From a virus (Duplodnaviria > Caudoviricetes), in IMG/VR virus record IMGVR_UViG_3300025131_000031, positions 1 through 63,847 of that record: a stretch of DNA of 63,847 nt. One strand, 5' to 3'. The notes beneath the pieces were generated by a model that was given only the letters and a program-made list of their open reading frames with translations, ran no database searches and was not told the origin of the DNA. Every line of letters begins with the position of its first letter. Position 1 is the stretch's first letter. Made by a program: the position numbers and the translations under genes. Shown in pieces: positions 20,997 to 50,518 of the stretch.

Positions 20997-21674
20997 ATGA
21001 ATTGTGAAGAATGCGGAAAATCAATAACAGGCAGAGGTAAATCTAATTATTGTCAAAGATGCTTCATGAGAATAGTCAAGCCTGGCAAAAAAGGAGGAGG
21101 TTGGAGCAAAGGATTAACAAAAGATACTGATGATAGAATTAAAAAAATGTCCATAAAAGTATCCGCTGCACTTAAAGGAAAGCCCAAGACAGAAAAGCAT
21201 GCAACAAAATTATCAAAAATTTTCAGGAAAAAATACGCAGGAAAAGGTAATCCTTTTTATGGTAAAAAACATTCAGATGATACTAAAAAAATATTATCTG
21301 AAAAGGCTATACATAGATCAAAAAAAATTAATCCTATATTCAATATTTTAAACAATATTTCGAATTCAGATACTAGTATTGAAGTTGCTGTAGAAAATTT
21401 TTTACAATCGGAAAAAATCGAATACAAGAAACAATATAGAATATATTATAATAAAATAAATTTTAAGATATATGATTTCTATCTACTAAAAGAGAATATT
21501 CTGATAGAAGTTGATGGTGATTTTTGGCATTGTAAATTAGAGAAAAAACCCAAGAATTATAAAGATATAATTGTGAATGATAAATTAAAAAATGATTTAG
21601 CTACAGAGAATGGATATAGATTAGTTAGAATATCTCAAAGCGAGTTAGATAGCGTTTGGAGGATTATAGTATGA
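20997..21674 (+). mobile_element. free-standing homing-type endonuclease: Zn finger + NUMOD3 + Vsr/DUF559-like nuclease
   Basis: CEEC..CQRC, WSKGLTK, NPFYGKKHSDDTKK (NUMOD3), TSIE, YDFYL, IEVDGDFWH, D..KN..A...GYRLVRI. Confidence 0.85.
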
Positions 21675-23218: not shown

Positions 23219-23219
23219 A

Positions 23220-23573
23220 ATGTTAAGTTTGAGCAATCATAGAGAAAAAAATGAATATGATTATAAACTAGAAGAAGCCGATCTAGATTTAACTGAAGAT
23301 GAAATAAGTAAGATTAAAAACCATGTTATAATAAAATCAGCCGATACTGTAGAATTCGGCGTTAAGGCTGGATATAATAGCAAAAAAATTATAGTACAAA
23401 AAATAGAGTATTATAAGACAGCTTTAGATCCTAGCTGTATACCGTACTATGAAAAAAATCCTTGGTTTACTCCTTGGATTAAAACTGGATATGTCGTAGA
23501 AAAAAATGAGAGTGGTTTAAGTTTGATCAAGCCCGGAGGCTGTAGTTCAGATAATACAGTGTATGAAGTATGA
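23220..23573 (+). CDS. hypothetical protein
   Basis: 117-aa ORF with AGGAG RBS. Confidence 0.6.
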   Translation: MLSLSNHREKNEYDYKLEEADLDLTEDEISKIKNHVIIKSADTVEFGVKAGYNSKKIIVQKIEYYKTALDPSCIPYYEKNPWFTPWIKTGYVVEKNESGLSLIKPGGCSSDNTVYEV

Positions 23574-23727
23574 AAATAACTAAATTAGAAAATGGAAATT
23601 ATGAATTTGCAGTTGATAAATCTGCTTTTTCAGAAGAGCAGCAAAAAGAAATAGATAGACTAATAACTTTACCAAAAGAAGAATTTAAGAAATTAGATCT
23701 TGATATTGAAATTGTATTGAGGAAAAA

Positions 23728-24753
23728 ATGCCAAGACCAATAGTAATACATCACCTCAATGCTTTGACATTAGGTGGAACAGAAAAAATGGTGCAAATCA
23801 TGATGAAGTGGTTCGTAAAAGATCCGACTTTCAATCATGTGTTAGCGTATCAATCACAGCAAGACAGAAGTAGAGAGAAATATTTTAGAGAGATTATGAG
23901 TGAATACAAGCTCATTCCTTATGCAAGCTATCCAGAATTCATTGCAATTGTTAGAAAACTTAGACCATTTATTATCCATAGGTATTCCGCTGGAATACCA
24001 GAATTCCCATTTGTTCAACCCGTTAAGGAAAATACAAAACACTTTGTTAGCACATCCGTCTTTGGCAACCAAGATGATACAATCGACATCAGCAGAGTAA
24101 TATTCGTTAGTAAACATGTGCAACATTTAGCTAATAGATTTGGTGATAAATACAGAGTAGTTAGAAACGCTATTGAAGATCCTTATACTGAGCATTGCCA
24201 TTCGTTAGGATTAGATCATGATGTATTTGTATTCGGTCATATTGGTAGACCTGATGAAAACACCTTCGATGATATAAACCTTAGAGCTTATAAAGAGATA
24301 GAGAATGACAAAACATTCTTCTTATGGCTGCCTGTCAATGGAATGGCTCAAGTAGCAGCACAAGATCTTGGATTGAAAAACTTCGATATGCTACCAAGAA
24401 CTACGGATGAAACTGAAATTAGTAAATTTTATAATTCAATCGATGTACTAGCTCATAGTAGAAGAGATGGTGAATGTAATCCTGCAGTGATGTTTGAAGC
24501 TTTTGCTCATAGAATCCCTGTTATAAGTCACTACGGAGTTCCTTTTAATGGACATATTGAGTGCGTGGGTAATGCTGGGTTTGTAGTTCCCCCTGGAGAT
24601 GTAGAAGAATATGCTAGAATAATGCAAGCCTTTATTGACAAAAAAGTAAATTATTATGCTCTGCAAGACAATGCTTATCAAAGATTTTACGAATGGGGAA
24701 GAGCAGAGAAATGGGCTGTTGAACAATTAAATATATATAAAGAATTATTTTAG
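23728..24753 (+). CDS. GT4-family glycosyltransferase
   Basis: GGTEK, FVSK, RNAI, GHIGR, GE....MFEAF...IPVI. Confidence 0.85.
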   Translation: MPRPIVIHHLNALTLGGTEKMVQIMMKWFVKDPTFNHVLAYQSQQDRSREKYFREIMSEYKLIPYASYPEFIAIVRKLRPFIIHRYSAGIPEFPFVQPVKENTKHFVSTSVFGNQDDTIDISRVIFVSKHVQHLANRFGDKYRVVRNAIEDPYTEHCHSLGLDHDVFVFGHIGRPDENTFDDINLRAYKEIENDKTFFLWLPVNGMAQVAAQDLGLKNFDMLPRTTDETEISKFYNSIDVLAHSRRDGECNPAVMFEAFAHRIPVISHYGVPFNGHIECVGNAGFVVPPGDVEEYARIMQAFIDKKVNYYALQDNAYQRFYEWGRAEKWAVEQLNIYKELF

Positions 24754-24893
24754 AAAGTTTATAAACCAGGAAGTAAATTATTATAAACTACAGGATAGGT
24801 GTTTGAATAATTTTAAGAATACTTGTCGAGCAGAAGATATGGCTAATAAACAGTTGTCGATATATAAGGAATTGTAATGAGGAAGAAAAGGTT

Positions 24894-25442
24894 ATGAAAG
24901 GAAAAGCGGAGACTCTAAGAAAGACTAGAAATCCTAAAGACTATTTAGATGCTAATGGTAATAAGCTAAACATAGGTGATTCAGTTAGATTAGTGGAAGG
25001 TCCCGATGCTTTTGATGGTCATCTTGGTGGCGCTGAAGGAAAAATAGAAGGCTTCAATGATGATTCTAAATTCAAAATTGCAATTAGATGGGGAAATAAC
25101 AAAGAAACAGCTGGACATCACTCAAAATACTTAAGCAAATCTGATGTAGCTTTAGCTGATGGAGATTATGATATCGATGAAGATGACTCATTTCCAGAAG
25201 CAGAAGAAGAATTGTTAGATGATCATGATGGCGAAAGAGTTGATCATCCTGATCACTATAATTCTCACCCAAGTGGTATAGAAGCTATTGAAGTAGTAAG
25301 ACATTATAATTTTAATGTAGGGAATGCTCTTAAGTATCTATGGAGAGCAGGATTGAAAGATGAAAATACTGAAGTAGAAGATTTACGAAAAGCTATATGG
25401 TATATAAATGATGAAATTATGAGGTTAGAAGATGGATCTTGA
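24894..25442 (+). CDS. DUF3310-domain protein with N-terminal SH3/KOW-like region
   Basis: VDHPDHY, IEAIEV, FNVGNALKYLWRAGLK, EDLRKAIWYI. Confidence 0.8.
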   Translation: MKGKAETLRKTRNPKDYLDANGNKLNIGDSVRLVEGPDAFDGHLGGAEGKIEGFNDDSKFKIAIRWGNNKETAGHHSKYLSKSDVALADGDYDIDEDDSFPEAEEELLDDHDGERVDHPDHYNSHPSGIEAIEVVRHYNFNVGNALKYLWRAGLKDENTEVEDLRKAIWYINDEIMRLEDGS

Positions 25443-25565
25443 AAAGATTGAAGAAATAGACACATTGACATGTATTTTAAATGTTGTATATAAGTTTGCT
25501 GAAACTAATGATGAAGATGATGCAGAAATTAAAGGTAGTGAATTAGTTAATTGGGCAAAAGATAT

Positions 25566-26591
25566 ATGAATGTTCTCGTAACAGGATGTGCAGGATTTCT
25601 TGGTAGTGAATTGTGTAAGAAGCTTCTTGAAGCTGGGCATATGGTCTATGGGATAGATGATTTGTCCTGTGGTTTCAAAGAAAATTTACATGATTTTTGG
25701 GATGATGTTGATCATTTTGTATGGTTGGAAAAAGATATTAGAAATGATGATTGTTATAGATTTATAGATCATGCCTTAAGAGGTAGAAAATTAGACGTCA
25801 TATACCACTTTGCTGCTAGAGGTGAAGTATATTGGTGTCAAGATAATCCAACAAATGCTGTTGATGTAAATGTAAATGGTACTTTAAAAGTGCTCGAATA
25901 TGCAGCACAGAAGAAAGTCAAGCATTTTATATTTACAGACACTAGTGCAGAATATGATAACATAGATTTATTTCCAACTGAAGAACTTGATGCTCCTAAT
26001 GCTGAAACACCTAGAGGAATCTATTCAATTACAAAGATGACTGCAGCTCAATTCGTAAGAGCATTTAGTGAAGAGCATGGATTTGGAGCTACTATATTCA
26101 GACCATTCAATGTCTATGGACCAACTATGAATTTAGAGAGAGATATTCCTCCTGTTATTGGTAGTTTCACAAAGAGAATGTTAGAAGGCCACTCACCAAT
26201 AATTTATGGTGATGGTTCTAAGAGAAGAGATTTCATTTATGTAGATGATATTACCGAGTTGTTCATGCGAGTGCTGAGTTACAGAGAACAGGGTACGGTC
26301 AGAGCTAGCGATTATTATAGATTATTCAAAAACAATAGTCGAACTTTCAATGCTGGTACTGGAGAAAACTATAGTATCTATGAAATATATGAATTAGTAT
26401 CGAGAGAAATATTTGGAGGAAAAGACAATTGGTTAGTTCCAATGTTTAAGCAGGATCAATCAGGAGAAGCAGAAATAACATTAGCATATATGAGAAATAC
26501 TACAAGTTTTTTCGAATGGAAACCTACAACATCAATCGAAGATGGAATCAAACTAACTGTGAGATCTATTCATGAAAAAATGCAAGCATAA
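25566..26591 (+). CDS. NAD-dependent sugar epimerase/dehydratase
   Basis: VTGCAGFLGS, YSITK, FRPFNVYGP, GDG...RDFIYVDD. Confidence 0.9.
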   Translation: MNVLVTGCAGFLGSELCKKLLEAGHMVYGIDDLSCGFKENLHDFWDDVDHFVWLEKDIRNDDCYRFIDHALRGRKLDVIYHFAARGEVYWCQDNPTNAVDVNVNGTLKVLEYAAQKKVKHFIFTDTSAEYDNIDLFPTEELDAPNAETPRGIYSITKMTAAQFVRAFSEEHGFGATIFRPFNVYGPTMNLERDIPPVIGSFTKRMLEGHSPIIYGDGSKRRDFIYVDDITELFMRVLSYREQGTVRASDYYRLFKNNSRTFNAGTGENYSIYEIYELVSREIFGGKDNWLVPMFKQDQSGEAEITLAYMRNTTSFFEWKPTTSIEDGIKLTVRSIHEKMQA

Positions 26592-26802
26592 ACTATGGAA
26601 GATAAGCTGCAAAATAGAAGAAGACCGAGTATATGAAGTGTGGATCTGCCAACATGCAGATTGTAGACAGAAATTTGCATCCGTTAGAACTGATGATCAT
26701 AAAGACATAAGAAAAGTTGAACAGGATTTTAGATTGAAAACAGAACTATTTCAAGTTGATTTAGAAAAATGGGACAGTGAAGGAGATATTGATTTTAAAT
26801 GA
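26572..26802 (+). CDS. small Cys-containing hypothetical protein
   Basis: CKH...CQHADC. Confidence 0.55.
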   Translation: MKKCKHKLWKISCKIEEDRVYEVWICQHADCRQKFASVRTDDHKDIRKVEQDFRLKTELFQVDLEKWDSEGDIDFK

Positions 26803-26809
26803 TAGTAAT

Positions 26810-27050
26810 CATGTTGATTTTATTATATATATTTATACTACTGCGATATAGAAGTTAGCAGAGGAAAAAGATGTAGAAGTTGTGCCAATAAAGGAAATAG
26901 AAATGGTAAGAATGAAAATAACAGGCCGAGGGACTGGAAGGAAAGAATGGAAATTGATAACTTAAAAAATACTTTAGCTATTTCAAGCGGATATAGAATT
27001 ATTAGAATATGGTCAGATGAAATAGATTTAAAGTGGAGGGTAATGTCATA
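26810..27050 (+). pseudogene. internally deleted NUMOD3/Vsr-type endonuclease remnant
   Basis: 5' part reads YCDIEVSRGKRCRSCANKG; 3' part reads IDNLKNTLAISSGYRIIRIWSDEIDLKWR; core is missing. Confidence 0.7.
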
Positions 27051-28061
27051 ATTATTACAAAAACGCCACTTCGAATAGGATTTGCAGGTGGAGGCTCAGA
27101 TTTGCCAGAATTTTGCAAAAACTATCCAGGATCATGCGTCAATGCTACTATTGACAAGTATGTATATGTTCTCGTAAAGAAAAGATATGACAATAAAATT
27201 TACCTCAAATATTCAGAAAATGAAATAGTAGAAGATATAAAATACATAAAACATGATTTCATTAGAGAAACTCTTGACTTCATGGGAATTAACTATGGCC
27301 TTGAAATTATAAACTGGGCTGATATTCCAACTAGAGGCACAGGACTAGGATCATCATCTAGTTTTCTAGTAGGGCTATTGAATGCTCTGTATACATTAGA
27401 AGGAAAGCCTCAAGAAGCAAGAGTATTAGCCGAACAAGCATGTCATATAGAAATTGATAGATGCAAAAAACCCATTGGCTATCAAGACCAATTTGCTGCA
27501 GCTTATGGTGGATTGAATTATATGCAATTCAAGGATGATGAAGCGTATACATCCGTTACGTCTATAGGCTATAATGATAAGCAATTGTTTGAATTATCAG
27601 AAAATATTCAAATGTTCTATACAGGAATAACAAGAGATTCATCATCAATATTGAGCGAGCAATCAAAAGATTTCAAAAACTCCGATGAAGAGAAAATAGA
27701 TCAGATGTCAAAGAATGTCGACCTGGCTAATATGCTATATGGAAGAGCTATTGACAGAAACTATGATGCATTTGGTGCAGCTATGTTAGAAAACTGGGCT
27801 ATAAAGAAAACATTCAACAGAGGAATTTCAAATGCTTTTATAGATAGAATCTATGAAGTAGCAGAAAGTGCTGGTATGTATGGCGGAAAGATTACTGGAG
27901 CTGGCGGCGGAGGTTTTTTTATTGCTTATAGCCCTGTGGCTTCGAAGTCCAAAGTGATTAAAAAAGTATGTGAAGTATCTGATAGTGTGAGATATATGCC
28001 TGTTAGATTTGATCCTTATGGTAGTAGAGTGTTATTGAATTGTGAGGAATATCGCTGGTAA
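27033..28061 (+). CDS. hddA: GHMP kinase, D-glycero-alpha-D-manno-heptose-7-phosphate kinase-like
   Basis: TPLRIGFAGGGSD, GTGLGSSSS, IGYQDQFAAAYGG, GKITGAGGGG; true start may be ATA 27048. Confidence 0.85.
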   Translation: MEGNVIIITKTPLRIGFAGGGSDLPEFCKNYPGSCVNATIDKYVYVLVKKRYDNKIYLKYSENEIVEDIKYIKHDFIRETLDFMGINYGLEIINWADIPTRGTGLGSSSSFLVGLLNALYTLEGKPQEARVLAEQACHIEIDRCKKPIGYQDQFAAAYGGLNYMQFKDDEAYTSVTSIGYNDKQLFELSENIQMFYTGITRDSSSILSEQSKDFKNSDEEKIDQMSKNVDLANMLYGRAIDRNYDAFGAAMLENWAIKKTFNRGISNAFIDRIYEVAESAGMYGGKITGAGGGGFFIAYSPVASKSKVIKKVCEVSDSVRYMPVRFDPYGSRVLLNCEEYRW

Positions 28062-28091
28062 TTTTAAATTATAAGAACAATATCAGATAAT

Positions 28092-28406
28092 ATGATTAAA
28101 AAACATAGGAATGGTTCTTTTAATTCAATGAAAATTCATAATACAAAACCTGAGTTGGCTGTTGAGAGTCAACTTAAGCAAATGAGTGTTAGATTTGAAA
28201 AATAAAAAAGAATTAAGAGTAAGCAATTCGATTTCTATTTGCCAGATTATGATATGTTGATAGAAGTAGATGGTGAATATTGGCATTCTTTACCTAAGGC
28301 TGTGAAGAATGATAAATTTAAAAACAATTTAGCAAAAAATGAGGGATATAAATTGACTAGAATATGGGCTGAAGACGTATATAAAAACTGGCGGATAATA
28401 TGGTAA
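28092..28406 (+). pseudogene. Vsr/DUF559-like endonuclease pseudogene
   Basis: NTKPE...FEK*KRI..FDFYL...IEVDGEYWH...NDKFKN.LA...GYKLTRIW with in-frame TAA at 28203; N-terminal domains absent. Confidence 0.8.
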
Positions 28407-28960
28407 AAGAAGAATATATTCCAGAAAATCTTTTGCAATTCTATGCTCATATAAGCACTACTTTCCAAGAAGTATATAATGACAAGCTTGGCAACCAAAT
28501 GCTAAAAGATCTATATATCTTAATGAAGGATTCTAAAAGAATATTTCTCATAGGCAATGGAGGATCTGCAGCTATATGTGATCATATAGCTAATGACTTA
28601 ACTAAGAGATGTTTTAGAAATGCTGAAGTATTGACATCGTATCCTCTCATAACTTGCTTAGCTAATGATTTTGGTTTTGAAGAGATGTATTTGAGATGGT
28701 TACAGATTAAATGTGCAGGAAATGATGATGATTTGTTGATAGCAATATCATCAAGCGGAGAATCTCCTGATATAACACTGCCAGCTGAATACTACACGAA
28801 CACAGATATGACTGTTTTTGGAATATCTGGATTCAATGGATTTAAAACAAATGAGGTTGATAAGCATATTCATTTCAAGTCAAGAAACTATGGCCAAATA
28901 GAAATGGTAACGGAAATGATGTTGCATGGAATTATAGAGGAGATGGTAAATGCCAGATAA
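28400..28960 (+). CDS. gmhA: phosphoheptose isomerase (SIS domain)
   Basis: IGNGGSAAICDHIANDL, TCLANDFG, AISSSGESP. Confidence 0.85.
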   Translation: MVKEEYIPENLLQFYAHISTTFQEVYNDKLGNQMLKDLYILMKDSKRIFLIGNGGSAAICDHIANDLTKRCFRNAEVLTSYPLITCLANDFGFEEMYLRWLQIKCAGNDDDLLIAISSSGESPDITLPAEYYTNTDMTVFGISGFNGFKTNEVDKHIHFKSRNYGQIEMVTEMMLHGIIEEMVNAR

Positions 28961-30462: not shown

Positions 30463-30660
30463 TGATAATGTGTGTTTCTCTGTCTTGCTTGTCTATATTG
30501 GCATTGTAAATTAGAAAATAAACCTCATGATCATAAACTACGTATGAAAAATGATCAATACAAAAATACTCTTGCAAGAAATAATGGATTTAATCTAATT
30601 AGAATAACTGAAAAAGAAGAAAATAAACTTATAAAAAAATTGGAATTTTTAAATGGCTGA
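30463..30660 (+). pseudogene. 3' remnant of a Vsr-type endonuclease
   Basis: YWHCKLENKP...NDQYKNTLARNNGFNLIRITE closely matches FWHCKLEKKP...NDKLKNDLATENGYRLVRISQ of 20997..21674. Confidence 0.75.
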
Positions 30661-30973
30661 AAGAGAAACACTAATACCCACACAAATCGATCCAACTATG
30701 ATCGAATTTAAAAAAGATGATAAACCAAAGAAAAAGGTGAGACCAATAGTTCCATCAATCAGGTCTATTGAAGAATACAGAAGACTTTATTCTGAGTTTA
30801 TAGGAATGAATTCAGATGATATGCTTTATGAAAGCTATAGAATTTCATTAGACAAAGGAATAAGAAAGTCTAACATCACTAAACTTAAAGCTAAGCACGC
30901 AAATAGAGTAAAGATGCAAAAGGCTTCACGAAAAAGAAACAGCGGAACAAAAAAGAATTCAAGAAAAAGATAA
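30653..30973 (+). CDS. basic hypothetical protein
   Basis: 106-aa ORF, K/R-rich tail. Confidence 0.6.
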   Translation: MAERETLIPTQIDPTMIEFKKDDKPKKKVRPIVPSIRSIEEYRRLYSEFIGMNSDDMLYESYRISLDKGIRKSNITKLKAKHANRVKMQKASRKRNSGTKKNSRKR

Positions 30974-30977
30974 ATAG

Positions 30978-31006
30978 TTTATATCCTGCGATTTTTTGAT
31001 TATATT
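30978..31006 (+). promoter_or_regulatory. sigma70-like promoter upstream of the ncRNA array
   Basis: TTTATA-17 nt-TATATT, same geometry as the repeated promoters at 48-57 kb. Confidence 0.55.
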
Positions 31007-31021
31007 TATTTATATATTCCT

Positions 31022-31083
31022 ATGAAAGCAAGGTCATGAGTTACTTCTAATGGAAATAGACACTCTAGCCACTAATTCTTCAT
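31022..31083 (+). ncRNA. Y RNA-like unit 1 (62 nt)
   Basis: atgaa/ttcat outer stem; AGCAA; ggt/gcc and gagt/actc inner stems; TACTTC; upstream of rsr. Confidence 0.7.
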
Positions 31084-31124
31084 CGGCCGGTTTAAAAAAT
31101 GGAACAATTGGATTAATAAATAAT

Positions 31125-31194
31125 ATTGGATAGCAAGACAATGGGTTACTTCAAACAGATAAAAGAGATACCCGTCGTCAATTAAACTTCCAAT
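31125..31194 (+). ncRNA. Y RNA-like unit 2 (70 nt)
   Basis: attgga/tccaat; AGCAA; gac/gtc and atgggt/acccgt; TACTTC. Confidence 0.75.
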
Positions 31195-31203
31195 TCTTAC
31201 AAA

Positions 31204-31469
31204 TATTAGAAAGCAAGGAACAGAGATACTTCAAAAAGCGAACAATTAAAATAATCTTTCCGTTTAGATAGTGGAGTTTGATGAAGCTAAGCTAAACATT
31301 GAGAAATTATTGAACTCCTTTTTCCGCCGGTTCGGGAGTTAATGTGGTTAAACCGGAGCCTGATTTACTGGACAGTTTGCAGGTGAACAAAGTTAAACTG
31401 TAATTCATTCTTCTCAGTGGATGAATATACCAAGTTACTGAAAATCCTCTGACCGATCATCTTCTAATA
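31204..31469 (+). ncRNA. Y RNA-like unit 3 (266 nt) with multi-hairpin insert
   Basis: tattagaa/ttctaata; AGCAA; gg/cc and cagag/ctctg; TACTTC; four internal hairpins. Confidence 0.7.
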
Positions 31470-31579
31470 AGAAAATTAAAATAAATCTTCTCGATAGAGA
31501 GAAGAGGTAGATTGCCTCTAAACAAGCTATAATATTATGGTGGACTCCGGACTGGACCAATGCAATCTTGAAATTTTTA

Positions 31580-31660
31580 TGCTGTAGCAAGATGTAGAGT
31601 TACTTCATATAACTGGCACACGCCAGTACCAAACAGCACTCTCATCACCAATACTCAGCA
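31580..31660 (+). ncRNA. Y RNA-like unit 4 (81 nt)
   Basis: tgctg/cagca; AGCAA; gatg/catc and agagt/actct; TACTTC; internal hairpin actggc-acac-gccagt. Confidence 0.75.
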
Positions 31661-31698
31661 GACTAAGCAAATTATATCATTCCTATAGGAGTGACGTA

Positions 31699-31731
31699 GC
31701 TGGCTGTCTCATTGAGATGGCCAGTTTTTTT
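31699..31731 (+). terminator. intrinsic terminator closing the ncRNA array
   Basis: ctggctgtctc-att-gagatggccag followed by a T7 run. Confidence 0.8.
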
Positions 31732-31744
31732 ATTGAAAGGTTTT

Positions 31745-31948
31745 ATGATGAAAATATATTTCGTAACAGCTCACTGGAGGCATTATGGTATGTGTGCAGG
31801 AGTTGTAAGAGCATGGAGTAAAACTAATGCTAAGCATATAATGCATCAGAAATATAAGCGCGACTTTGAATTAAAGAATTTTTCAGCTTTAGAAATAGAG
31901 CCTGAAGGAAAAGAAGAATTGATAGATGATGTTGATTACATGGAATAA
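31745..31948 (+). CDS. hypothetical protein
   Basis: ATG after AAAGG. Confidence 0.55.
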   Translation: MMKIYFVTAHWRHYGMCAGVVRAWSKTNAKHIMHQKYKRDFELKNFSALEIEPEGKEELIDDVDYME

Positions 31949-32187
31949 TGGATAATAAAACTAAACAATTACATTTGAATGCTGCAAGGAAAGCAGGTAT
32001 AGCAAACTCTTGTACTGAAAAAATAGACTACAAGAACTTTGAAACTGCTTTAAAAAGTAGCATATTAATGTCAGGAAAATATAAGAAACCTCTTGAACCA
32101 TATCCCTGTCCTTTTTGTGAAGGATGGCATATTGGTAGAGAGATGTCAAGAAAAGAATTAGAATCACACAACATAACCCCCCTATAA
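31948..32187 (+). CDS. small zinc-binding protein
   Basis: C..K..Y...A...PYPCPFCEGWHIG. Confidence 0.65.
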   Translation: MDNKTKQLHLNAARKAGIANSCTEKIDYKNFETALKSSILMSGKYKKPLEPYPCPFCEGWHIGREMSRKELESHNITPL

Positions 32188-32202
32188 AAAGGAGGCAACA
32201 AA

Positions 32203-33807
32203 ATGGCAAAATTTGCCAAGGTATCACCAAAGAAGTCAGAACAGAAGACATTCACATCTGACGATATCACAGAAACACTCAACGAAGAAGGTGGAAAAGC
32301 TTATACACTTCCATACAAGGAACGACTTGCAACTAGAGTTATGAGCTCCTTGATCAATGAAAAGAAGTTCTATGGAGATAATACAGCTGCATTATTGGCT
32401 GATATTAAGGAATGTGGAGAAAAGGATCCTGAATTCTTGATGAAGCTTGCCGCATATACTCGAAATGTAATGTATTTCAGATCTTCACCAGTATTTGTTT
32501 TAGGACATGCTTCATTGATTAACGAAGTAAAGCCTTTCGTAAGAAAGTGGACACCTCGAATTGTACAGAGAGCTGATGAACCAGCAGAAATTCTTGCATT
32601 GATTGGAACATATTTCACAGAAAAAGGTGAAAAGGCAGTTGTTCCTAACTCAATCAAGAAGGGTTTGGCAGATACTCTCAAAAAGTTTGACGCTTATGCT
32701 CTTATGAAGTACAAGGGAGTTGGTAAGTCGGTTAACTTGTATGATGTATTCAACGTTTGTCACCCAAAGCCAGATGATCAGAAACAAGCCGATCTTTGGA
32801 AGAAGTTTATGAATGGTGAGCTTGAATCCGCTAACACATGGGAAAGAAACCTTTCAGCTGGTGGCAAAAAGACAGAAGGAGAAAAGGCTGAAATTTGGGA
32901 AGAAACAATTCCAGTAATGGGATATATGGCATTGCTTAGAAACCTTAGAAACTTTGCGGAAGCAAATATTTCTAATGAAGCTATTGATTTGGTAGTTGAA
33001 AAGCTAACAAATGAAAAGGCAGTTTTGAATAGCAAGCAGTTCCCATTTAGATTCTTCTCTGCTTGGAGAGAATTGTCTAAGGTAGCAACAGGCCGTGAAG
33101 ATAGAGGTATGTATTACGATGGCCATCCACCAGCCTCTGAACTTGCAAGAGTACTTAAGGCACCTGATAAATCTAATCTTAGAAAGTTGATTGGAGCTAT
33201 TGAAGATGCATTTGAAATTTCGATTAAGAATGTTACTCAATTGCCAGGTACTACAGTTATTATGTCGGATCACTCAGGTTCAATGACTGCACCAATTTCT
33301 GATAGATCTTCAGTTACAAATATGGACATAGCTTTAGTTCTTCACTCAATCGCTGATAAGCTTTCAAAGAAGAATGCCGGTATAATCTTTGGAGAAAGAG
33401 TAGCGACAGTTTCTTCAGAAGGTATTTCGGCAATGAAGTTTATTGATGAAATGAGAAAGAAAGATGTTGGTCATTCAACAAATGCATACAAAGCATTTGA
33501 AGCATTGATCAGATCAGGAGTATCGGTTGATCGTGTAATTCTTCTTTCTGATATGCAATGCTACAGTACAGGATTCTATTTCAGATCTTCATTGTCAGTG
33601 AACGATTCTTGGAAGAAATACAAGAAGATTGCTCCAAATGCTTATCTCCACACAGTGGATCTTTCAGGCTATGGAACATCTCAAGTTGCAATTAACGACC
33701 ATAATGTAGCACTCTATTCTGGTTGGAACACAAAGTTTCTTGATTTGATAGCACAAGTAGAAAGAGGAATTGGATCGCTAATTCAGGACATCGAAAACTA
33801 TAGATAA
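32203..33807 (+). CDS. rsr: Ro60/TROVE-domain RNA-binding protein with vWA domain
   Basis: NEEGGKAY, RADE, PNSIKKGLA, FDAY.L.KY, HPKP, TWE, MGYMALLRNLRN, SKQFPFRF; MIDAS DHSGSM; AGGAGG RBS. Confidence 0.95.
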   Translation: MAKFAKVSPKKSEQKTFTSDDITETLNEEGGKAYTLPYKERLATRVMSSLINEKKFYGDNTAALLADIKECGEKDPEFLMKLAAYTRNVMYFRSSPVFVLGHASLINEVKPFVRKWTPRIVQRADEPAEILALIGTYFTEKGEKAVVPNSIKKGLADTLKKFDAYALMKYKGVGKSVNLYDVFNVCHPKPDDQKQADLWKKFMNGELESANTWERNLSAGGKKTEGEKAEIWEETIPVMGYMALLRNLRNFAEANISNEAIDLVVEKLTNEKAVLNSKQFPFRFFSAWRELSKVATGREDRGMYYDGHPPASELARVLKAPDKSNLRKLIGAIEDAFEISIKNVTQLPGTTVIMSDHSGSMTAPISDRSSVTNMDIALVLHSIADKLSKKNAGIIFGERVATVSSEGISAMKFIDEMRKKDVGHSTNAYKAFEALIRSGVSVDRVILLSDMQCYSTGFYFRSSLSVNDSWKKYKKIAPNAYLHTVDLSGYGTSQVAINDHNVALYSGWNTKFLDLIAQVERGIGSLIQDIENYR

Positions 33808-33829
33808 GTAGTTATTATCATTAACAATT

Positions 33830-33862
33830 ATGCATCAGTATTTTATACTGGTGCATTTTTTT
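33830..33862 (+). terminator. intrinsic terminator after rsr
   Basis: atgcatcagta/tactggtgcat stem followed by a T run. Confidence 0.8.
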
Positions 33863-33885
33863 GTTATGATATTGAAGGAGGTTTC

Positions 33886-34857
33886 ATGAGTGAAAGACTA
33901 GAAGCTTACAGATATTGGCAAGAACTTAGAGCCGAAGCCAGGCATATGAATAAATTAAGTGGCTACGGTTTTTCTGTGTGTTCTATGCATGATCAAGATG
34001 GAATGCTCGATGAAATATTCAGAAGAATTGAAACAAAGAGTAAGAGATTCATTGAATTTGGATGTGGTGAAGGTATGCAGAATAATACTCTGTATCGCCT
34101 ATCCTATTTGGGATGGAAAGGTTTGTGGATAGATGGAGATGCTGAAGTAATTGAAGGAGCAGCAAAGAGATCTGAATATTATAACAATAGAGATGATCTT
34201 GACATTATGCACGAATTGGTCGATAGAGATAATATAGATAAAATCATCAGTGATTATTCTAAAGATGATCTAGATTATGATTTACTAGTAATAGATGTAG
34301 ATTGGAATGACAGTTATATATGGGAAGCTATAGAATGTATAGAGCCAAGAGTAATTTGCATAGAATATAATTCGGCCATTCCATATGATGTAGATCTTAG
34401 AGTTCCTTATAACAAAGATACTCAGTACTCATGTTGGAATGGAGCATCATTCTATGGATCAAGTTTACTATCATTAAATGAGATAGCTACAAAAAAGGGA
34501 TATTCTCTCGTGGGTTGTTCATTAGCAGGATCAGATGCTTTCTTTGTTAGAGATGGTTATGTCAAATCAATAGTAGAAAAATCTGGTAACACAATGTATG
34601 TAAAACCAATGTGGTTTGGTGTTGGTAGAATTTCTCATTTATTTGAACCTTCAAGATTTGATCTATGCTTCAATCTTGGACATCAATCTCATCCCTGGTC
34701 TAATGTAGCTTTGATGGATCATTCGAAAAGGACATTGAAAAAAAATGAAGAAGAGAGATTAGCTAAAGAGAAATTTGATCTATGCTTCAATAAAGAGAAA
34801 GAGAAAAAGACTAAAATACTACCAGCGACAATTGATACAAAAGGACCAAAGATATGA
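33886..34857 (+). CDS. FkbM-like methyltransferase-fold protein
   Basis: QDGML.EIF, IEFGCGEG..N, IDVDWND..IW, PRVICIEYN, KGY.LV. Confidence 0.75.
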   Translation: MSERLEAYRYWQELRAEARHMNKLSGYGFSVCSMHDQDGMLDEIFRRIETKSKRFIEFGCGEGMQNNTLYRLSYLGWKGLWIDGDAEVIEGAAKRSEYYNNRDDLDIMHELVDRDNIDKIISDYSKDDLDYDLLVIDVDWNDSYIWEAIECIEPRVICIEYNSAIPYDVDLRVPYNKDTQYSCWNGASFYGSSLLSLNEIATKKGYSLVGCSLAGSDAFFVRDGYVKSIVEKSGNTMYVKPMWFGVGRISHLFEPSRFDLCFNLGHQSHPWSNVALMDHSKRTLKKNEEERLAKEKFDLCFNKEKEKKTKILPATIDTKGPKI

Positions 34858-34870
34858 AAGGAATGGGAAA

Positions 34871-35617
34871 ATGAGTGAAAAATCCCGCGTGCACATTGAA
34901 CTAGGATGTGGGAATAACAGAAGAGATATGGATGGGTATGAGAATATTGGTGTAGATATTATGAGATCTAATTGTACTGATCTCATAATAAATTTAGGAT
35001 TTGAAAATCTACCATTTGGAGATAAATCTGTTGATATAGTGCAAGCTTACGATGTTCTAGAACATATTCCAAAATGTATTTGGAAGCCTGATATAAATTC
35101 ATACAATATACCCCCAGTAGCAGGAGCAGATAAATCTACAATCATAACAAACCCAATGCGAATGATTAGAGAAAATCCATTAATAAATCTAATGAATGAA
35201 ATATTCAGAGTCCTTAGAGATGGCGGCAGATTTGTAGCTGAAATGCCTTTCTCAAATGAAGCTTATGATAGAGATCCAACACATGTAACTAAATTATCAG
35301 AAGATTGGTTCCACTATTTCAAGAAAGATGATAATCTTTACTATGATCAGGGTTTAGTAAAATGTGATTTTAAGCTAGACACGAATAGATTTAGAGAATA
35401 TAAATGGACCAAGAAAGATATTATGCATACTGAATTGATAGCAGTTAAGTCGAGAGGGAAAGAACCTTCACCAGCTTATAAGATGCTCAATACAACAAGC
35501 AATGATGGTCTGCCTATAGTAATTCCAGAAGATGTTGCAAATGAAGGAGAGAAGAATCGAGCTTCTTCATCGTATGAACGAGACAGTGCTCTTATAACAA
35601 GGCAACCGTTGATATGA
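34871..35617 (+). CDS. SAM-dependent methyltransferase (type 11-like)
   Basis: IELGCG, LPF.D.SVD, VLEH, EIFRVL..GG, DPTH. Confidence 0.85.
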   Translation: MSEKSRVHIELGCGNNRRDMDGYENIGVDIMRSNCTDLIINLGFENLPFGDKSVDIVQAYDVLEHIPKCIWKPDINSYNIPPVAGADKSTIITNPMRMIRENPLINLMNEIFRVLRDGGRFVAEMPFSNEAYDRDPTHVTKLSEDWFHYFKKDDNLYYDQGLVKCDFKLDTNRFREYKWTKKDIMHTELIAVKSRGKEPSPAYKMLNTTSNDGLPIVIPEDVANEGEKNRASSSYERDSALITRQPLI

Positions 35618-35716
35618 AATCGAAATACACTTATTCATTGAGTAAGAAAAAACTAGACATGTTTATAGACGAATACCCTAATGTTAAATTGAATATTTTA
35701 TTTGAGGATCAGTTAA

Positions 35717-36679
35717 ATGAAGGTTATTAAAATTTTAATCATACAGAGTCCACACTATGATTTTTCAGGTGCTACTCTAATAGAAGGTCTTCATATTCTA
35801 CAAGCAAAAGGTGAAGTAGAAGTTTTTACTGCAGAATCGTCTAACTATGCCTCCGGGTTAGATTATTCACATCAATTGGCTAACGACGCAGATATCTTGC
35901 AGTACGGCCGTGAAACGGCCGATCTAGTAGTAAAAACGTCCAATCAAGCCGTTAGATCGGACCTTGTAGAAAGTATAGATAGACCAGAGAAGACAGTTTT
36001 TATAGATGGAGAGGATACTCACCCATATATAGAAGATCCTAAAAAATATCCATTGTATTTCAAAAGAGAAATGCGGTTAGATGTAGATCATCCTAAGAAT
36101 GTTAAGCCATTTCCATTCGCTATCGAAAATAGATATATTCATAATCCCAATGAATGGGAAGATAGAAAATTTGACGTAGCTTGTATGTTTGGGCCTCATG
36201 ATAGTACAAAGCCCTGGCGTAGAGAAATAGAAGATAAACTGAATGATATGGATTTAGAAAATTCAGTGATTGGTCAGTTATATGGAGGAGTTCCAGATAG
36301 ACAAGATATCGATACGGGTAACAGAGATCATCCTGATTATTATAATGTTTTAGCATTGTCGAAAATAGCAGTTGATGCACATGGTGCACATGAATGTAAT
36401 TCGGCTAGATTTTGGGAATCGCTAGCATGTGGATGTCTATTGGTAACTAGAAGAAATCTGATTCACATGCCACATCCCTTTGAAAATGGTATACATATGT
36501 TTGAGTTCCAAGATCCTTTGTCATTGGGATATATCATACCAAATCTTTTAAAGGACGATACAACTATGCAGAAAATAGCAAATGAAGCTCTAGTTCATGC
36601 TATGAATTTCCATACAACTGAAGCTAGAGTCAATCAGTTTTTGAGCGAATGTTATAGAGAAGGATTAATTAACAAATAG
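35717..36679 (+). CDS. glycosyltransferase (CgeB/Glyco_trans_1_2-like)
   Basis: IDGED, YFKRE, SKI, RFWESLACG, HT..AR. Confidence 0.75.
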   Translation: MKVIKILIIQSPHYDFSGATLIEGLHILQAKGEVEVFTAESSNYASGLDYSHQLANDADILQYGRETADLVVKTSNQAVRSDLVESIDRPEKTVFIDGEDTHPYIEDPKKYPLYFKREMRLDVDHPKNVKPFPFAIENRYIHNPNEWEDRKFDVACMFGPHDSTKPWRREIEDKLNDMDLENSVIGQLYGGVPDRQDIDTGNRDHPDYYNVLALSKIAVDAHGAHECNSARFWESLACGCLLVTRRNLIHMPHPFENGIHMFEFQDPLSLGYIIPNLLKDDTTMQKIANEALVHAMNFHTTEARVNQFLSECYREGLINK

Positions 36680-36715
36680 GATGATATTTATTAAAAATAT
36701 CATAGGAGAAGTTCT

Positions 36716-38749
36716 TTGATACTAGAAGGAATTCAGCATATAAACGACCTTAAAATTGACAAGTTTCTAGATCTTGTCAGAAGGTTGAATAATAAAGACA
36801 AATCATTAGAGCTGAGTGTAAAGTTTGATGGATCTGCAAACTTAGGATTTGGCTTAGATGATAAAGGAAAACTATATTTTTCTAGGGATGTGAAGGGTCA
36901 ACCAGATCATAAACATTCTACGAAAGATTGGCCTGGGAAGCCAATGTATAATCCTATTAGGAGTGCTGTCGCTGCATTGCTCAGTGTCAAAGACGTACTT
37001 GAAAAGCAGTTGAAGCCTGGTGATTATGTGGGTTGTGAAGTGCTATTCGAAACTATACCCAATGCTATAGAATATGGAGATAATTATATTATCGTTCATG
37101 ATGCAGCATTCAATTCATTGATTAAAAAGCTTAGACCTACTAAGGCTAAAATAGATTTATACTACTATAATCCTGAATCAAAGAAAATAGATAAGAGCAT
37201 TGAGACTGTTACTTATAGCTTCTCAGGAAAGGAAGTAGTTAGAAGTAACAAGTATAAGCTCTCCATTGGAAATGATATTAATCAATTAGAAGACTTAATG
37301 AAACAAAAAAATAAAACTTTTAAGGATTCTTCTAATTATGATGTGTTAACTTTCAGGGCTGTTGGAAAAGATAAGGATAAAATAAAAAGAGAAAAGGAAA
37401 GTTTAACTAAACAAATATCTAATTTACAACTGGATATAAAGGATAAACTAATAGATTCTATCCTAAATAAGCTATCAGCAGGAGCGATGGCACAACCACC
37501 AGTATTTGATGATAAAGGAAATAATGTAGGAGGAAGTTGGCCAGAGGGTGTAGTAATAAAAGATCTGAAAACAGGAGAGCTATCTAAGATAGTATCGGTC
37601 TTCCCTATTATTAATAAATTCCTTTGGTACTACAGAGAAATGGCAATGTCAGGTGCAGGACCAGCAGGAAGTTTTGTTCCTGGAGTAATGAGAACATTTC
37701 AACATTCAGTTGCCGAAAAAGTATTTGGTATCAAGGGTTTGAAGTCCGTTGGTATAGTAAAAATTATCAACAACAAATATAAATCAGCTACTGCGAATGA
37801 GAAGATTCTCAGGTACTTGAAAGATAATGGATTCAAATTCACTAAAGCTAATTCAGCAAGAAACAGTTTCGTCAATGAAATAAAGAAAGCTATCAAGAGT
37901 CTGAATAAGCTCAAAAGAGAATTTGACAAAACAGGAAAGGAAAAAGTACTCAAGGTTAAGAGAGGCTCATTCAAGAGAGATGTAAAACATGATCCAGTTC
38001 ATATTCGAAAGACTTATGAAACTTTCTTAGACATAGAAACAGAGCTCAATGACTATCTCAAATTAGTTCAGAGAGTAAGTGAAAATACTCCAGAAGGTAC
38101 AGCGGTTCAGCTGTTGAGGATATTCTTTGGTCAAAGAAATTTGAATAAGCTGAATGAGGATTATAATCTTCAAAAATTTGTTATTGAAAAGTTAAATGAA
38201 ATAGGAGTATTGCACGAAGGAGGAACTAATGTAAAAATTGGAGTGTTAGTAGGTAGATTCCAGCCTCCTCAAAGATTGCATATTGAATTAATCAGAAAAG
38301 CTCTAATGAAGAATAATAAAGTGTATGTGTTTGTAGCAGGACAAAAATTAGACAAGAACAGAAATCCTTTCCCACATCAGATCAGAGCTAATGTACTAGC
38401 TAAATTTGTCAAAAGCAATAAGGTCATGATTCATTCAGCTAAATCAGGATTTATTCCAGGCTTAATAGATGAATTTGTAGACTTGAATAATGTCGGTGAA
38501 GTAAATGTTTATGCTGGTACCGATAGAATTGGTGGATATAAGGGAATGTTCAAGAACTATTGGGATCATGATAATGTAAAAGTTAAGGTGAATGAATTGA
38601 AGAGAGATCCTGATTCGGTCAGTGCTACAAAAGTTAGAGAATCTATCAAAAACAATGATTTCAAATCGTTTGTAGACTATATGCCTGAGGGATTATCATT
38701 GACATACTTAACAGGGCTGTTCAAAAAATATAGAAAGTATTTGACATGA
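36716..38749 (+). CDS. fusion of KxDG nucleotidyltransferase/ligase-like domain and HxGH-type cytidylyltransferase-like domain
   Basis: SVKFDGS and EGVVIK in the N-terminal part; GRFQPPQRLH, NPF, GTDR, SATKVR in the C-terminal part. Confidence 0.7.
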   Translation: MILEGIQHINDLKIDKFLDLVRRLNNKDKSLELSVKFDGSANLGFGLDDKGKLYFSRDVKGQPDHKHSTKDWPGKPMYNPIRSAVAALLSVKDVLEKQLKPGDYVGCEVLFETIPNAIEYGDNYIIVHDAAFNSLIKKLRPTKAKIDLYYYNPESKKIDKSIETVTYSFSGKEVVRSNKYKLSIGNDINQLEDLMKQKNKTFKDSSNYDVLTFRAVGKDKDKIKREKESLTKQISNLQLDIKDKLIDSILNKLSAGAMAQPPVFDDKGNNVGGSWPEGVVIKDLKTGELSKIVSVFPIINKFLWYYREMAMSGAGPAGSFVPGVMRTFQHSVAEKVFGIKGLKSVGIVKIINNKYKSATANEKILRYLKDNGFKFTKANSARNSFVNEIKKAIKSLNKLKREFDKTGKEKVLKVKRGSFKRDVKHDPVHIRKTYETFLDIETELNDYLKLVQRVSENTPEGTAVQLLRIFFGQRNLNKLNEDYNLQKFVIEKLNEIGVLHEGGTNVKIGVLVGRFQPPQRLHIELIRKALMKNNKVYVFVAGQKLDKNRNPFPHQIRANVLAKFVKSNKVMIHSAKSGFIPGLIDEFVDLNNVGEVNVYAGTDRIGGYKGMFKNYWDHDNVKVKVNELKRDPDSVSATKVRESIKNNDFKSFVDYMPEGLSLTYLTGLFKKYRKYLT

Positions 38750-38872
38750 TAGGTGATAAAGCACCAAGAGGAAAATTGTTAGACAACTGTTCAGATAAAT
38801 TTCAGTTGATGCTGGTGACCCAGATACTTATAATTATAAGGCGCTGGAATAGAAGAAATTGGAGGGCGATAG

Positions 38873-40147
38873 ATGAAAATATTTGCACCTCAGGATAAAG
38901 TAATCGCTAATGTCGACAGGGCTATTGAACATCTTGAAACCGGTAGCACATCCCCCGTGTTAGTTGAATTCGATCCATCTAATTCATGCAATCATTCATG
39001 CCACTTCTGTTTGAGTGGTCACATACATCTACCTGAATCGAAAGGTTTTCCAACTTTCAATCGAAATATGTTGTCAAGAGATTTGATGATGAGAACCTGT
39101 GAAGAACTTATTGATATGAAAGTTAGAGCAGTGAATTGGACAGGAGGAGGAGAACCAACAGCAAACCCAGCTTTAAAAGAATGCATTGAATATCTTGGCA
39201 AGAATGGAGTCAAGATGGGAATGTTTACTAATGGGACTTTGTTACATACATTTGATTTGTTTGATACGCTATTAGAATATATGACTTGGGTTAGAATTTC
39301 AATTGATGCAGGAGACCCTGATACGTATAATTCTATAAGAAGAACTGTAAAGGGTAAAAATGATTGGAATAGAGCTCTTGAAAATCTTCTTATATTATTG
39401 AATAAGAGATCGAATAAGAGAACAAATTGGTGGAGTACACATGATGAGCTAGCAGTATATCCTATGGGTAGAGGTACTAAAGAAAAATCTTGGCACCCAA
39501 ATCAAATGGATATTGGAGTTGGTTTCGTTATAACTCCCGATACATATAATGGAATAGTTGATTTTGCTGAATGGTTTAGAGATTCAGATGTAGACTATTG
39601 CCAATACAAACCTGAAATTGTTAATGTTGAAAGAGAAGGTGGGATTCAAAGACAAGCTAAATTCTGGAAGGAGAAAGTAAATCCTCTGTTAGATGAAGCA
39701 AGAGATATTCTAGGTGATAAATTTCAGATGAATGGTTACCATTTTGAAGACTTAGAAAATGACCCAAAGCTACTTGGTAGAACATATGAGAAATGTTTAG
39801 GCTCTCAAATATCTCCTTGTATAGGAGCAGATGGTGAAGTCTATGTTTGTCCAAATCATCGAGGACATGAAAGATATTCTTATGGATCATTGCACAAACA
39901 GACTTTCAAACAAATATGGAATGACATAAACAAAAGAAAGAAAGTTATGTCAATCATAGAAGATGAAGAACAGTTCTCAAAATGTACTCAGTTGTGCAAA
40001 CCTCACGAAAGTAATAAAATGTGTTGGACCATACATCAGGCTTTAATAGCTGCAGATTCAGCATCAAAAAAGAAATCATTGAAACAATCATTCTTGGCTT
40101 TGCAAGATAAGAAAAGAGAAAAGATTGATCATTGGGAGTTTATATAG
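38873..40147 (+). CDS. radical SAM / SPASM protein
   Basis: CNHSCHFC, GGGEPT, TNG, RISID; C-terminal IGADGEVYVC...C..C. Confidence 0.9.
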   Translation: MKIFAPQDKVIANVDRAIEHLETGSTSPVLVEFDPSNSCNHSCHFCLSGHIHLPESKGFPTFNRNMLSRDLMMRTCEELIDMKVRAVNWTGGGEPTANPALKECIEYLGKNGVKMGMFTNGTLLHTFDLFDTLLEYMTWVRISIDAGDPDTYNSIRRTVKGKNDWNRALENLLILLNKRSNKRTNWWSTHDELAVYPMGRGTKEKSWHPNQMDIGVGFVITPDTYNGIVDFAEWFRDSDVDYCQYKPEIVNVEREGGIQRQAKFWKEKVNPLLDEARDILGDKFQMNGYHFEDLENDPKLLGRTYEKCLGSQISPCIGADGEVYVCPNHRGHERYSYGSLHKQTFKQIWNDINKRKKVMSIIEDEEQFSKCTQLCKPHESNKMCWTIHQALIAADSASKKKSLKQSFLALQDKKREKIDHWEFI

Positions 40148-40775: not shown

Positions 40776-41423
40776 ATGATGAACGCTAGAAAGGTTTTAC
40801 TGCACAATGTACTAGTGCTAAACAGAAGCTGGATTCCAATACATATAACAACTGTTAGAGATGCAATAGGATTGGTTTTCGTAGGAGCTGCAAATGTAAT
40901 AGTTCCCGATGAAATGAAATCAATATCTGGCAAAACAGTTGCTTATGAATTCGAAGCAATGGATTATTCAATATGGACATCTAAATCTTGTGAATTGGAT
41001 AAAAATCAGTATGAAATTCTAAGTTCAGCTAAGAACATCCATTTCAAGCCTTCAGTTGTTGCGCTTACAAGATACAATGGAATACCAAGATATGAAATCA
41101 GATTCTGCAGAGCTTCACTCTATGAAAGAGATAGTGGAAAGTGTCAGTATTGTGGAAAGAGAATTTCAAGGGGCGATGCTACAATTGATCACGTTCAACC
41201 AAGGTCTAAGGGTGGAAAAAACTCTTGGAGCAATGCAGTACTAGCATGCAAGTCCTGCAACTCAGTTAAGTCAGACTTTACCCTTGATCAATCGGGAATG
41301 AAGTTGTTGAGCAAACCAAAGAAGCCTAACTGGATTTCAGTTAGATTTGGTAAGACAAGAAGTGTGAAGGAAAGAGCTGAATGGCGCAAATTTACAGAAT
41401 ACGTAGAAAGTGAGGTTTCATAA
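40776..41423 (+). CDS. HNH endonuclease (McrA-like)
   Basis: VLVLN; RD..CQYCG, TIDHVQPRSKGG, N.V.AC..CN..K. Confidence 0.9.
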   Translation: MMNARKVLLHNVLVLNRSWIPIHITTVRDAIGLVFVGAANVIVPDEMKSISGKTVAYEFEAMDYSIWTSKSCELDKNQYEILSSAKNIHFKPSVVALTRYNGIPRYEIRFCRASLYERDSGKCQYCGKRISRGDATIDHVQPRSKGGKNSWSNAVLACKSCNSVKSDFTLDQSGMKLLSKPKKPNWISVRFGKTRSVKERAEWRKFTEYVESEVS

Positions 41424-50516: not shown

Positions 50517-50518
50517 AA

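Follow-up and report, generated by a model that had tools for sequence, protein, structure and literature searches.

Ro60 and the Y RNAs that accompany it are familiar from human autoimmunity, although what they do is understood best in just one bacterium. Y RNAs adjoin the genes of Ro60 orthologs in 254 bacteria and 22 phages, with one Y RNA candidate given for each of the 22 phages (Chen 2014, Table S2; PMC4201824). Bacterial species have at least two Y RNAs each, some of them in one precursor with a tRNA, and one tRNA-like Y RNA was found in every species examined by Chen et al. (PMC4201824). Characterized Y RNAs have a stated size of 80–130 nt; those of bacteria carry a 5′-strand motif, GNCGAAN0-1G, that is thought to contact Ro60, and a conserved YUAY starts their variable part (PMC4201824). 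Yrn1 and Yrn2 of Deinococcus radiodurans arise from a precursor that also contains a tRNA, and in the machine formed by Rsr, Y RNA and PNPase (RYPER) the Y RNA tethers the ring to its effector (PMC4201824). Among phages, in vitro work on Thermus phage phiLo has shown that its Ro60 binds both host PNPase, which it slows, and two Y-like RNAs encoded upstream (PMC12135203). In Listeria phage CKA15, an Rsr-like gene is preceded, within 2 kb, by three regions of high transcription that have been proposed to be Y RNAs (PMC12282133), and a jumbo-phage survey mentions TROVE proteins with a tRNA-like partner. A divergent member of this known Ro60/Y RNA system is present in the DNA described here, the 63,847-bp window that makes up the whole of virus record IMGVR_UViG_3300025131_000031 in IMG/VR (Caudoviricetes). 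In it, a row of four structured RNA units (U1–U4) stands upstream of a gene for an Rsr (Ro60) ortholog, and a fifth unit (U5) lies in a distant tRNA cluster. All five are most probably Y RNAs of the bacterial YrlA/YrlB kind and partners of the phage's own Rsr, with a terminal module that would bind Rsr and a variable module that would gate or tether it.

The pattern AGCAAG-N{6,12}-TACTTC occurs four times in the window (at 31027, 31132, 31212 and 31586), always on the + strand and with a 9-nt spacer, against 0.07 occurrences expected; none of 100 shuffles reached four. These matches are packed into one 640-nt stretch of a single strand, at 31.0–31.6 kb, and no further copy of AGCAAG...TACTTC is found anywhere else in the record. 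Minimum-energy folds of U1–U4 have a common layout, consisting of an outer stem, a 5′ loop with AGCAAG, a bulged two-part inner stem, UACUUC and a variable insert, while the stem sequences differ from unit to unit. An earlier note, drawn up from the letters of this DNA alone, had described four units with this order of elements, and the stems that it listed are all present, paired and different between units. The 3′ ends of U1–U4 lie 543–1120 nt upstream of rsr and on its strand, and ARAGORN detected no tRNA over 30800–31900. Inserts vary widely, including one with a 6-bp hairpin of G and C in U4 and one of 214 nt in U3 (31233–31446). Neither the U3 insert nor the spacers showed similarity to anything in the fetched loci. 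The spacer between U3 and U4 (31470–31579), which is outside all units, contains a 7-bp hairpin at 31486–31505 (UCUUCUC/GAGAAGA) and other short stems; this spacer may serve for processing or be a further small RNA.

The gene downstream of the array encodes a 534-aa protein that matches the TROVE family in Pfam (PF05731; E 3.5e-33, with a family cut-off of 23 bits) and 'RNA-binding protein' in PHROG (850; E 1.4e-43). The closest solved structure is that of phiLo Ro60 (PDB 9KOP/9L5Y; E 4e-25), which aligns over residues 23–289 (ring) and 330–523 (vWA), at approximately 23% identity by tblastn. Pfam vWA models gave no match in the protein, the sole hit being a weak one to DUF7788. The metal-site motif DxSGS is kept, as DHSGSM in the window Rsr and DVSGSM in phiLo Ro60, and residues D356, S358, G359, S360, T426 and D450 are invariant in all eight aligned proteins. 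The full TROVE-vWA gene claimed in the earlier note is thus borne out by the TROVE match and by the alignment of the vWA half to phiLo Ro60, and a closed ring fold is predicted from likeness to 9KOP.

Rows of comparable units accompany TROVE genes in many other viruses. A first set of loci comprised six viral contigs with TROVE proteins 33–37% identical to that of the window. Loci L001–L003 have unit rows just upstream of TROVE, in which a unit reads GCGGCAUUG ... CGG-UUACUUC ..., continues with a T arm, an acceptor hairpin and a D arm, and closes with ... UUUUAUCCGC, and two units from sister loci scored 37.8 and 30.8 bits with Rfam YrlA, under the cut-off of 69. When all viral contigs were scanned blindly for AGCAAG-N7-GTTACTTC and 80 loci were fetched, most of the matches were due to chance. 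TROVE directly adjoins the AGCAAG-N7-GTTACTTC match in two of these (L037 and L083), where four to five units with short, long or tRNA-like inserts lie 3′ of TROVE and are followed by real tRNA genes. A profile search by TROVE similarity alone then supplied 80 other viral TROVE loci, in which the count of TTACTTC is 252 for the TROVE strand and 46 for the opposite one (604,610 nt). A covariance model, R1, was built from 25 short units, three from the window (U1, U2 and U4) and 22 from 19 other loci, with a structure written by hand on the alignment, because RNAalifold on a plain MAFFT alignment predicted 0 pairs, the 3′ ends being out of register. A hand-made stem descriptor anchored on TACTTC was dropped, since it accepts 210 of 405 random positions in addition to 275 of 381 real sites.

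At E ≤ 0.01, R1 found 146 matches in the window and the 80 loci, with none on the opposite strand. The window accounts for four of them, and the remaining 142 are spread over 63 of the 80 other loci, the outcome of a covariance-model search that the earlier note had proposed. All 142 lie on the TROVE strand, 100 upstream and 42 downstream and none inside the gene, at a median distance of approximately 325 nt and with zero to seven matches per locus; among 78 control loci that have the 5′ pattern without TROVE, three matches were obtained. The units are therefore members of an RNA family tied to TROVE genes and to their strand. In the window, the seed units U1, U2 and U4 scored 43.7, 53.2 and 44.7 bits, only the 5′ half of U3 was detected (15.6 bits), and no additional unit appeared with filters off. 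The matches fall into two size classes, with 67 of 50–90 nt and 57 of 120–140 nt, and a regular expression for a T-loop-like motif is satisfied in 61 of the 142. Across the family, one scaffold carries short hairpins, tRNA-like modules or long inserts, in agreement with the earlier description of one scaffold with different cargoes. One R1 match (L038, 2993–3065; 31.9 bits) is on a viral contig without TROVE within 3 kb, and may be distant from its TROVE gene or lack one. A short unit on the minus strand of L207 (2942–3029) has a 21-nt 5′ half identical to that of U3 and lies within a run of tRNA genes; the TROVE gene of that locus is approximately 6 kb away and shares only 28% identity with that of the window.

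The stems of this family covary clearly. Near-duplicate loci are present, leaving 123 distinct rows among the 146 matches; in these, 75.1% of stem cells are paired, compared with 54.2% after shuffling (0 of 500 shuffles as high) and 31.6–53.6% when the strands are slid. Changes on both sides occur in all 14 pairs, exemplified by one with CG in 60 and GC in 45 and another with GC in 63 and AU in 54 units, and the covariation score is 0.573 versus 0.219. For the outer helix, in which the 5′ end meets the 3′ end, 78% of cells are paired, and both-side changes are seen in six of six pairs. It is barely credible, and already disfavoured, that the units are decayed tRNA-derived or chance repeats without function, even though tRNA genes and tRNA-like debris abound in large phages and two of the array folds, those of U1 and the U3 region, are no more stable than shuffles (see below). 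The motif count is far beyond chance, R1 matches are strand-exclusive, covariation extends over 123 distinct units from many contigs, and the scaffold is kept in units without a tRNA-like part.

The element that might contact the protein can be compared with the published motifs. In the 123 distinct units, the 5′ loop consensus is U-R-G-Y-R-W-A-G, followed by a helix and then G-U-UACUUC; the former aligns with GNCGAAN0-1G, and UUAC aligns with YUAY. The YUAY position reads UUAC in U1, U2, U4 and U5 and AUAC in U3. UAGCAAG of the window equals GNCGAAG in position and length and departs from it by purine-for-purine changes at three places, with A at the fourth place, where G is expected, in 34 of the distinct family members. 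As judged from these alignments, the window motif is probably related to that of Y RNAs, and UAGCAAG may be read as a purine-transition variant of GNCGAAG. All units of a locus have one and the same loop variant, and variants cluster on a quick tree of TROVE proteins, with 28 changes compared to 44.3 in shuffles and 0 of 200 shuffles as low. This clustering fits a protein-recognition element; it also fits co-evolution of protein and RNA without proving it, since related sequences share labels. The window Rsr, placed with uncertainty, has a long branch (1.31) and falls outside the clade in which the RNAs have the same GCAA variant.

U5, which was not a seed of R1, lies between tRNA genes at 52384–52455 and 52656–52728, 18.7 kb downstream of rsr. 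Its scaffold reads UAGCAAU ... GUUACUUC ... ACUCU ... GAUUUUCU, and in the fold of its insert a T-arm-like hairpin (CGG/UUCAAUU/CCG) is followed by one of 7 bp that is acceptor-like, with a loop starting in ACCA, and by a small third hairpin. T arm, acceptor and D arm follow one another in the order described for YrlA (PMC4201824), and for this reason the phage appears to have one tRNA-like Y RNA. The earlier note gave four units in its text and five where it outlined a test; a fifth does exist, at a site outside the array. Loops of acceptor-like hairpins that begin with N-CCA right after the stem were observed in U5 (52584–52606) and in loci L001 (2290–2330) and L083 (3275–3300), without a systematic count, and look as if they were the encoded tRNA 3′ end of a circularly permuted tRNA mimic.

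R1-type units also occur in cultured phages. Bacillus phage G has four with E < 0.001 and one weak match in an unannotated gap just upstream of its TROVE gene, gp540 (L208 4170–4790; approximately 406669–407289 of the record). They are tandem, short (GAAGCGG ... GUUACUUC) and distinct from the published YrlA candidate. Caulobacter phage CcrColossus has approximately six units on the minus strand upstream of TROVE (L209 4337–5197), in which three R1 matches and three matches to Rfam YrlA below its cut-off are interleaved; one of the YrlA matches overlaps an annotated tRNA-Gln. The R1 units of this phage, like those of phage G, are additional to the candidate of Table S2 (PMC4201824) and at other positions. 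In Bacteroides phage crAss001, one R1 match (25.6 bits) and two weak ones occupy a 900-nt unannotated gap downstream of the TROVE gene gp96 (L246 4291–4613). Vibrio phage phiKT1024 gave a single chance-level R1 match (E 0.67). The scaffold is thus widespread, and it is not universal.

Presence of the array in RNA libraries is indicated by contigs from two studies, which have no differences from the window and span 31033–31704; a further contig, X18, is probably DNA and was left out of this count. One contig covers 31038–31704 unbroken, which in itself does not prove a single transcript, and ends within a strong intrinsic terminator. The stretch from 31740 to 34000, including rsr, has no contig cover, an observation that carries no weight either way on rsr expression. 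Terminator-like sites number eight against 1.3 expected, and those closing the array and following rsr are where the earlier note had put them. The promoter that it assigned to the array was not confirmed, the site being a 9/12 match in a region with 17 such sites against 11.1 ± 3.7 expected. The unbroken contig and the position of the array upstream of rsr on the same strand would also suit an array that serves rsr as a regulatory 5′ untranslated region, acting in cis as a leader or as a site of processing of the transcript. Such a role is very unlikely, as the terminator and two open reading frames (ORFs) separate the array from rsr, 42 of the 142 units in other phages are downstream of TROVE, U5 is 18.7 kb away, and every unit closes on itself by its own 5′/3′ stem.

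Several observations weigh against the assignment of the units as Y RNAs. Rfam YrlA and Y_RNA, scanned as the earlier note had suggested, match none of the five units at E ≤ 10. The YrlA subfamily is delimited by a tRNA-like domain together with a score above the cut-off, and RF02553 gave no match at E ≤ 10 in 30900–31800 or in 52456–52660, the interval around U5, the only rows returned by Rfam being chance-level snoRNAs and sRNAs. The CGAA core is missing from all five window units, which have CAAG or CAAU instead, and in phiLo each CGAA base is worth 3- to 4-fold in affinity (PMC12135203). U3 (266 nt), U1 (62 nt) and U2 (70 nt) fall outside the size of characterized Y RNAs, and fold energy is no better than that of shuffles for U1 (z +0.96) and the U3 region (z −0.41), compared to z −2.73 for U2 and −3.26 for U4. 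Seventeen of the 80 TROVE loci have no R1 match. R1 at E ≤ 1 also finds nothing in phiLo, with its bound Yrl1 and Yrl2, or in mycobacteriophage Bxz1, with its published YrlA, so the link from the scaffold to proven Ro60 binders is indirect, and R1 units do not directly overlap RNAs of demonstrated Ro60 binding. All R1 seeds were chosen for containing TTACTTC, which makes the invariance of this heptamer in the alignment partly a matter of construction and leaves its strand bias as the independent evidence, while the alignment behind the covariation was itself fitted to the structure of the model. Lastly, contigs from RNA libraries carry no information on strand, ends or processing and could derive from carried-over DNA.

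Some of these points would also be expected if the structured RNAs are real and have a partner other than Rsr, a different factor that accompanies TROVE genes in large phages (for instance an enzyme of RNA repair or tRNA processing), or if they are stand-alone tRNA-like decoys. The missing CGAA core and the failure of R1 on the experimentally bound phiLo RNAs would agree with this, as would units that lie far from rsr in tRNA clusters, such as U5 and the L207 unit. Such an arrangement is nevertheless improbable: TROVE is the one gene common to the 63 positive loci, for which TROVE similarity had been the sole basis of retrieval, the small ORFs beside rsr have no relatives in the other fetched loci, and the 5′ loop aligns with the published Ro60-contact motif and varies along the TROVE tree.

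If the units are Y RNAs of the encoded Rsr, the region at 31.0–31.7 kb would constitute a non-coding operon with its own terminator that encodes four Y RNAs, which would be cut from a precursor to unit length. Their partner would be the Rsr ring protein encoded 0.5 kb downstream, and the tRNA cluster at 52.5 kb would supply the fifth, tRNA-like Y RNA. The putative protein-binding module is formed by the 5′ and 3′ ends and comprises a closing stem of 5–8 bp, an internal loop with (U/A)AGCAA(G/U) on its 5′ strand, a bulged two-part helix and the UUACUUC junction. Rsr would bind this common module, by analogy with characterized Y RNAs. The variable module (a loop or hairpin of 14–33 nt, the 214-nt multi-helix insert or a tRNA-like domain) may block the cavity of the ring or tether the ring to factors such as host PNPase or tRNA-handling enzymes, and a single Rsr protein could thereby give rise to several different particles during infection. 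A more far-reaching proposal, tentative and rather doubtful, is that large phages run an interchangeable kit of Y RNA adaptors on one Ro60 ring, in which a constant scaffold co-evolves with Rsr and swapped cargoes (hairpins, permuted tRNA mimics with an encoded CCA, large orphan domains) each direct the ring to a different host machine and blunt defences that cut tRNA or other RNA. Were this true, the U3 insert would represent a novel RNA domain that has a ligand of its own, and the host targets would be PNPase, tRNA-processing or repair enzymes, and perhaps ribosomes.

The array and rsr are enclosed by a block of sugar and glycan genes at 12.2–40.1 kb, with glycan genes at 12205–28960 on one side and 33886–40147 on the other, which agrees with the earlier placement inside a glycan cluster. 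The array itself occupies a stretch (30974 to approximately 31744) that is free of ORFs, as had been claimed, save for one 51-aa ORF on the minus strand. Between it and rsr are two small ORFs; ORF A has no Pfam or PHROG family, and neither has a relative among the other fetched loci. The window is a fragment of a large phage, as indicated by a completeness rating of 23%, and encodes replication and nucleotide-metabolism genes as well as 25 tRNA genes on the + strand (48860–60302) with small ORFs interspersed. Two ORFs resembling homing endonucleases are situated within and just past the glycan block, at 20997–21674 (NUMOD3 and Vsr) and 40776–41423 (HNH). The ORF at 2478–3029 has a match (E 4.7e-6) to the superfamily of 2′-5′ RNA ligases (2H phosphoesterases) and may have a connection with RNA repair; RtcB or another RNA ligase was not seen in the 23%-complete fragment. 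Nearly the whole window is also present in DNA runs labelled marine metagenome. A blastn search of 30600–33900 against 50,697 phage records gave no matches, and a scan of metagenomes found one near-identical copy (L211; two differences in 6,602 nt and none in the array itself), the next-closest relative having only 36% identity. Coordinates of the features are collected in Table 1.

Table 1. Positions of the RNA units, neighbouring genes, signals and RNA-library contigs in the window.
Feature	Position	Strand	Description
Promoter-like site (TTTATA-17-TATATT)	30978–31006	+	9/12 consensus match; not above chance
Y-like unit U1, 62 nt	31022–31083	+	Outer stem AUGAA/UUCAU, loop AGCAAG, inner stem GAGU/ACUC, UACUUC, 14-nt insert
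Y-like unit U2, 70 nt	31125–31194	+	Outer stem AUUGGA/UCCAAU, inner stems GAC/GUC and AUGGGU/ACCCGU
Y-like unit U3, 266 nt	31204–31469	+	Outer stem UAUUAGAA/UUCUAAUA, inner stem CAGAG/CUCUG, AUACUUC, 214-nt insert
Y-like unit U4, 81 nt	31580–31660	+	Outer stem UGCUG/CAGCA, inner stems GAUG/CAUC and AGAGU/ACUCU
Intrinsic terminator closing the RNA array	31698–31726	+	13-pair stem with 6 G-C pairs, T run
Small ORF A, 67 aa from ATG	31745–31948	+	Putative gene, no family match
Small ORF B, 79 aa	31948–32187	+	CPFCEGWH stretch; weak match to PHROG 15216, E 7.6e-4
rsr (Ro60 ortholog), 534 aa	32203–33807	+	TROVE (HEAT-repeat ring) and vWA with MIDAS-type site; Pfam, PHROG and PDB matches
Intrinsic terminator 3′ of rsr	33830–33856	+	12-pair stem, T run
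Y-like unit U5, 108 nt	52540–52647	+	R1 28.0 bits, E 4.6e-5, non-seed
X16 contig, RNA library	31038–31704		Depth 15.2; ends inside terminator stretch 31698–31726
X17 contigs, RNA library	31033–31226 and 31207–31663		
X20 contig, RNA library	31271–31449		Inside U3 insert

The feature is real, and its novelty is smaller than the earlier note had supposed, as phage Ro60 with adjacent Y RNAs was published in 2014 (PMC4201824) and binding of Y-like RNAs and host PNPase by phiLo Ro60 has been reported as well (PMC12135203). A literature search did not find the UUACUUC scaffold or rows of multiple units in phages described, a result that does not establish their absence from print. The new traits are the variant loop motif, the full UUACUUC junction, the four units without tRNA-like modules in a terminated operon, the distant tRNA-like fifth unit and the 214-nt orphan insert. 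Knowledge of Ro60 is unchanged in principle. Phage Ro60 genes are nonetheless commonly accompanied by sets of Y-like RNAs, as in the window and 63 of the 80 TROVE loci; the current Rfam YrlA model finds no window unit, and units from sister loci and cultured phages score only below its cut-off. The putative protein-binding module can be expressed as a compact covarying motif, and the family alignment provides a seed for a new RNA family model. Unannotated R1-type units in phages G, CcrColossus and crAss001 offer RNAs for tests in tractable systems.

Compared with the known systems, the window units share with metazoan Y RNAs (RF00019) a terminal stem, a bulged helix, which binds Ro60 in metazoans, and a variable loop module. 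RF00019 itself gave no match at E ≤ 10, and the GGUCCGA helix is absent from the units, as the earlier note had said. D. radiodurans resembles the window in having several Y RNAs, Yrn1 and Yrn2, upstream of rsr (PMC4201824), whereas its Y RNA has a Ro-binding helix that resembles the metazoan one and the window's does not. Phage phiLo likewise encodes a Ro60 with Y-like RNAs, Yrl1 and Yrl2, upstream (PMC12135203); its two RNAs have the CGAA motif, unlike those of the window, and the RNA scaffolds of the two phages differ, given that R1 finds no match in the phiLo locus. From YrlA and YrlB (PMC4201824; RF02553) the window differs in its motif, which is UAGCAAG in place of GNCGAAG, in conservation of the full UUACUUC heptamer, in the lack of tRNA-like modules among the four rsr-proximal units with the tRNA-like unit 18.7 kb away, in the 214-nt insert of one unit, and in that Rfam YrlA detects none of the five. 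Its resemblance to these bacterial RNAs extends to location on the strand of the Ro60 ortholog and within a few kilobases of it, pairing of the 5′ and 3′ ends, a conserved purine-rich motif on the 5′ strand followed by YUAY, tRNA genes nearby, and a complement of two or more Y RNAs in a genome, of which one includes a tRNA-like module while others are plain hairpins.

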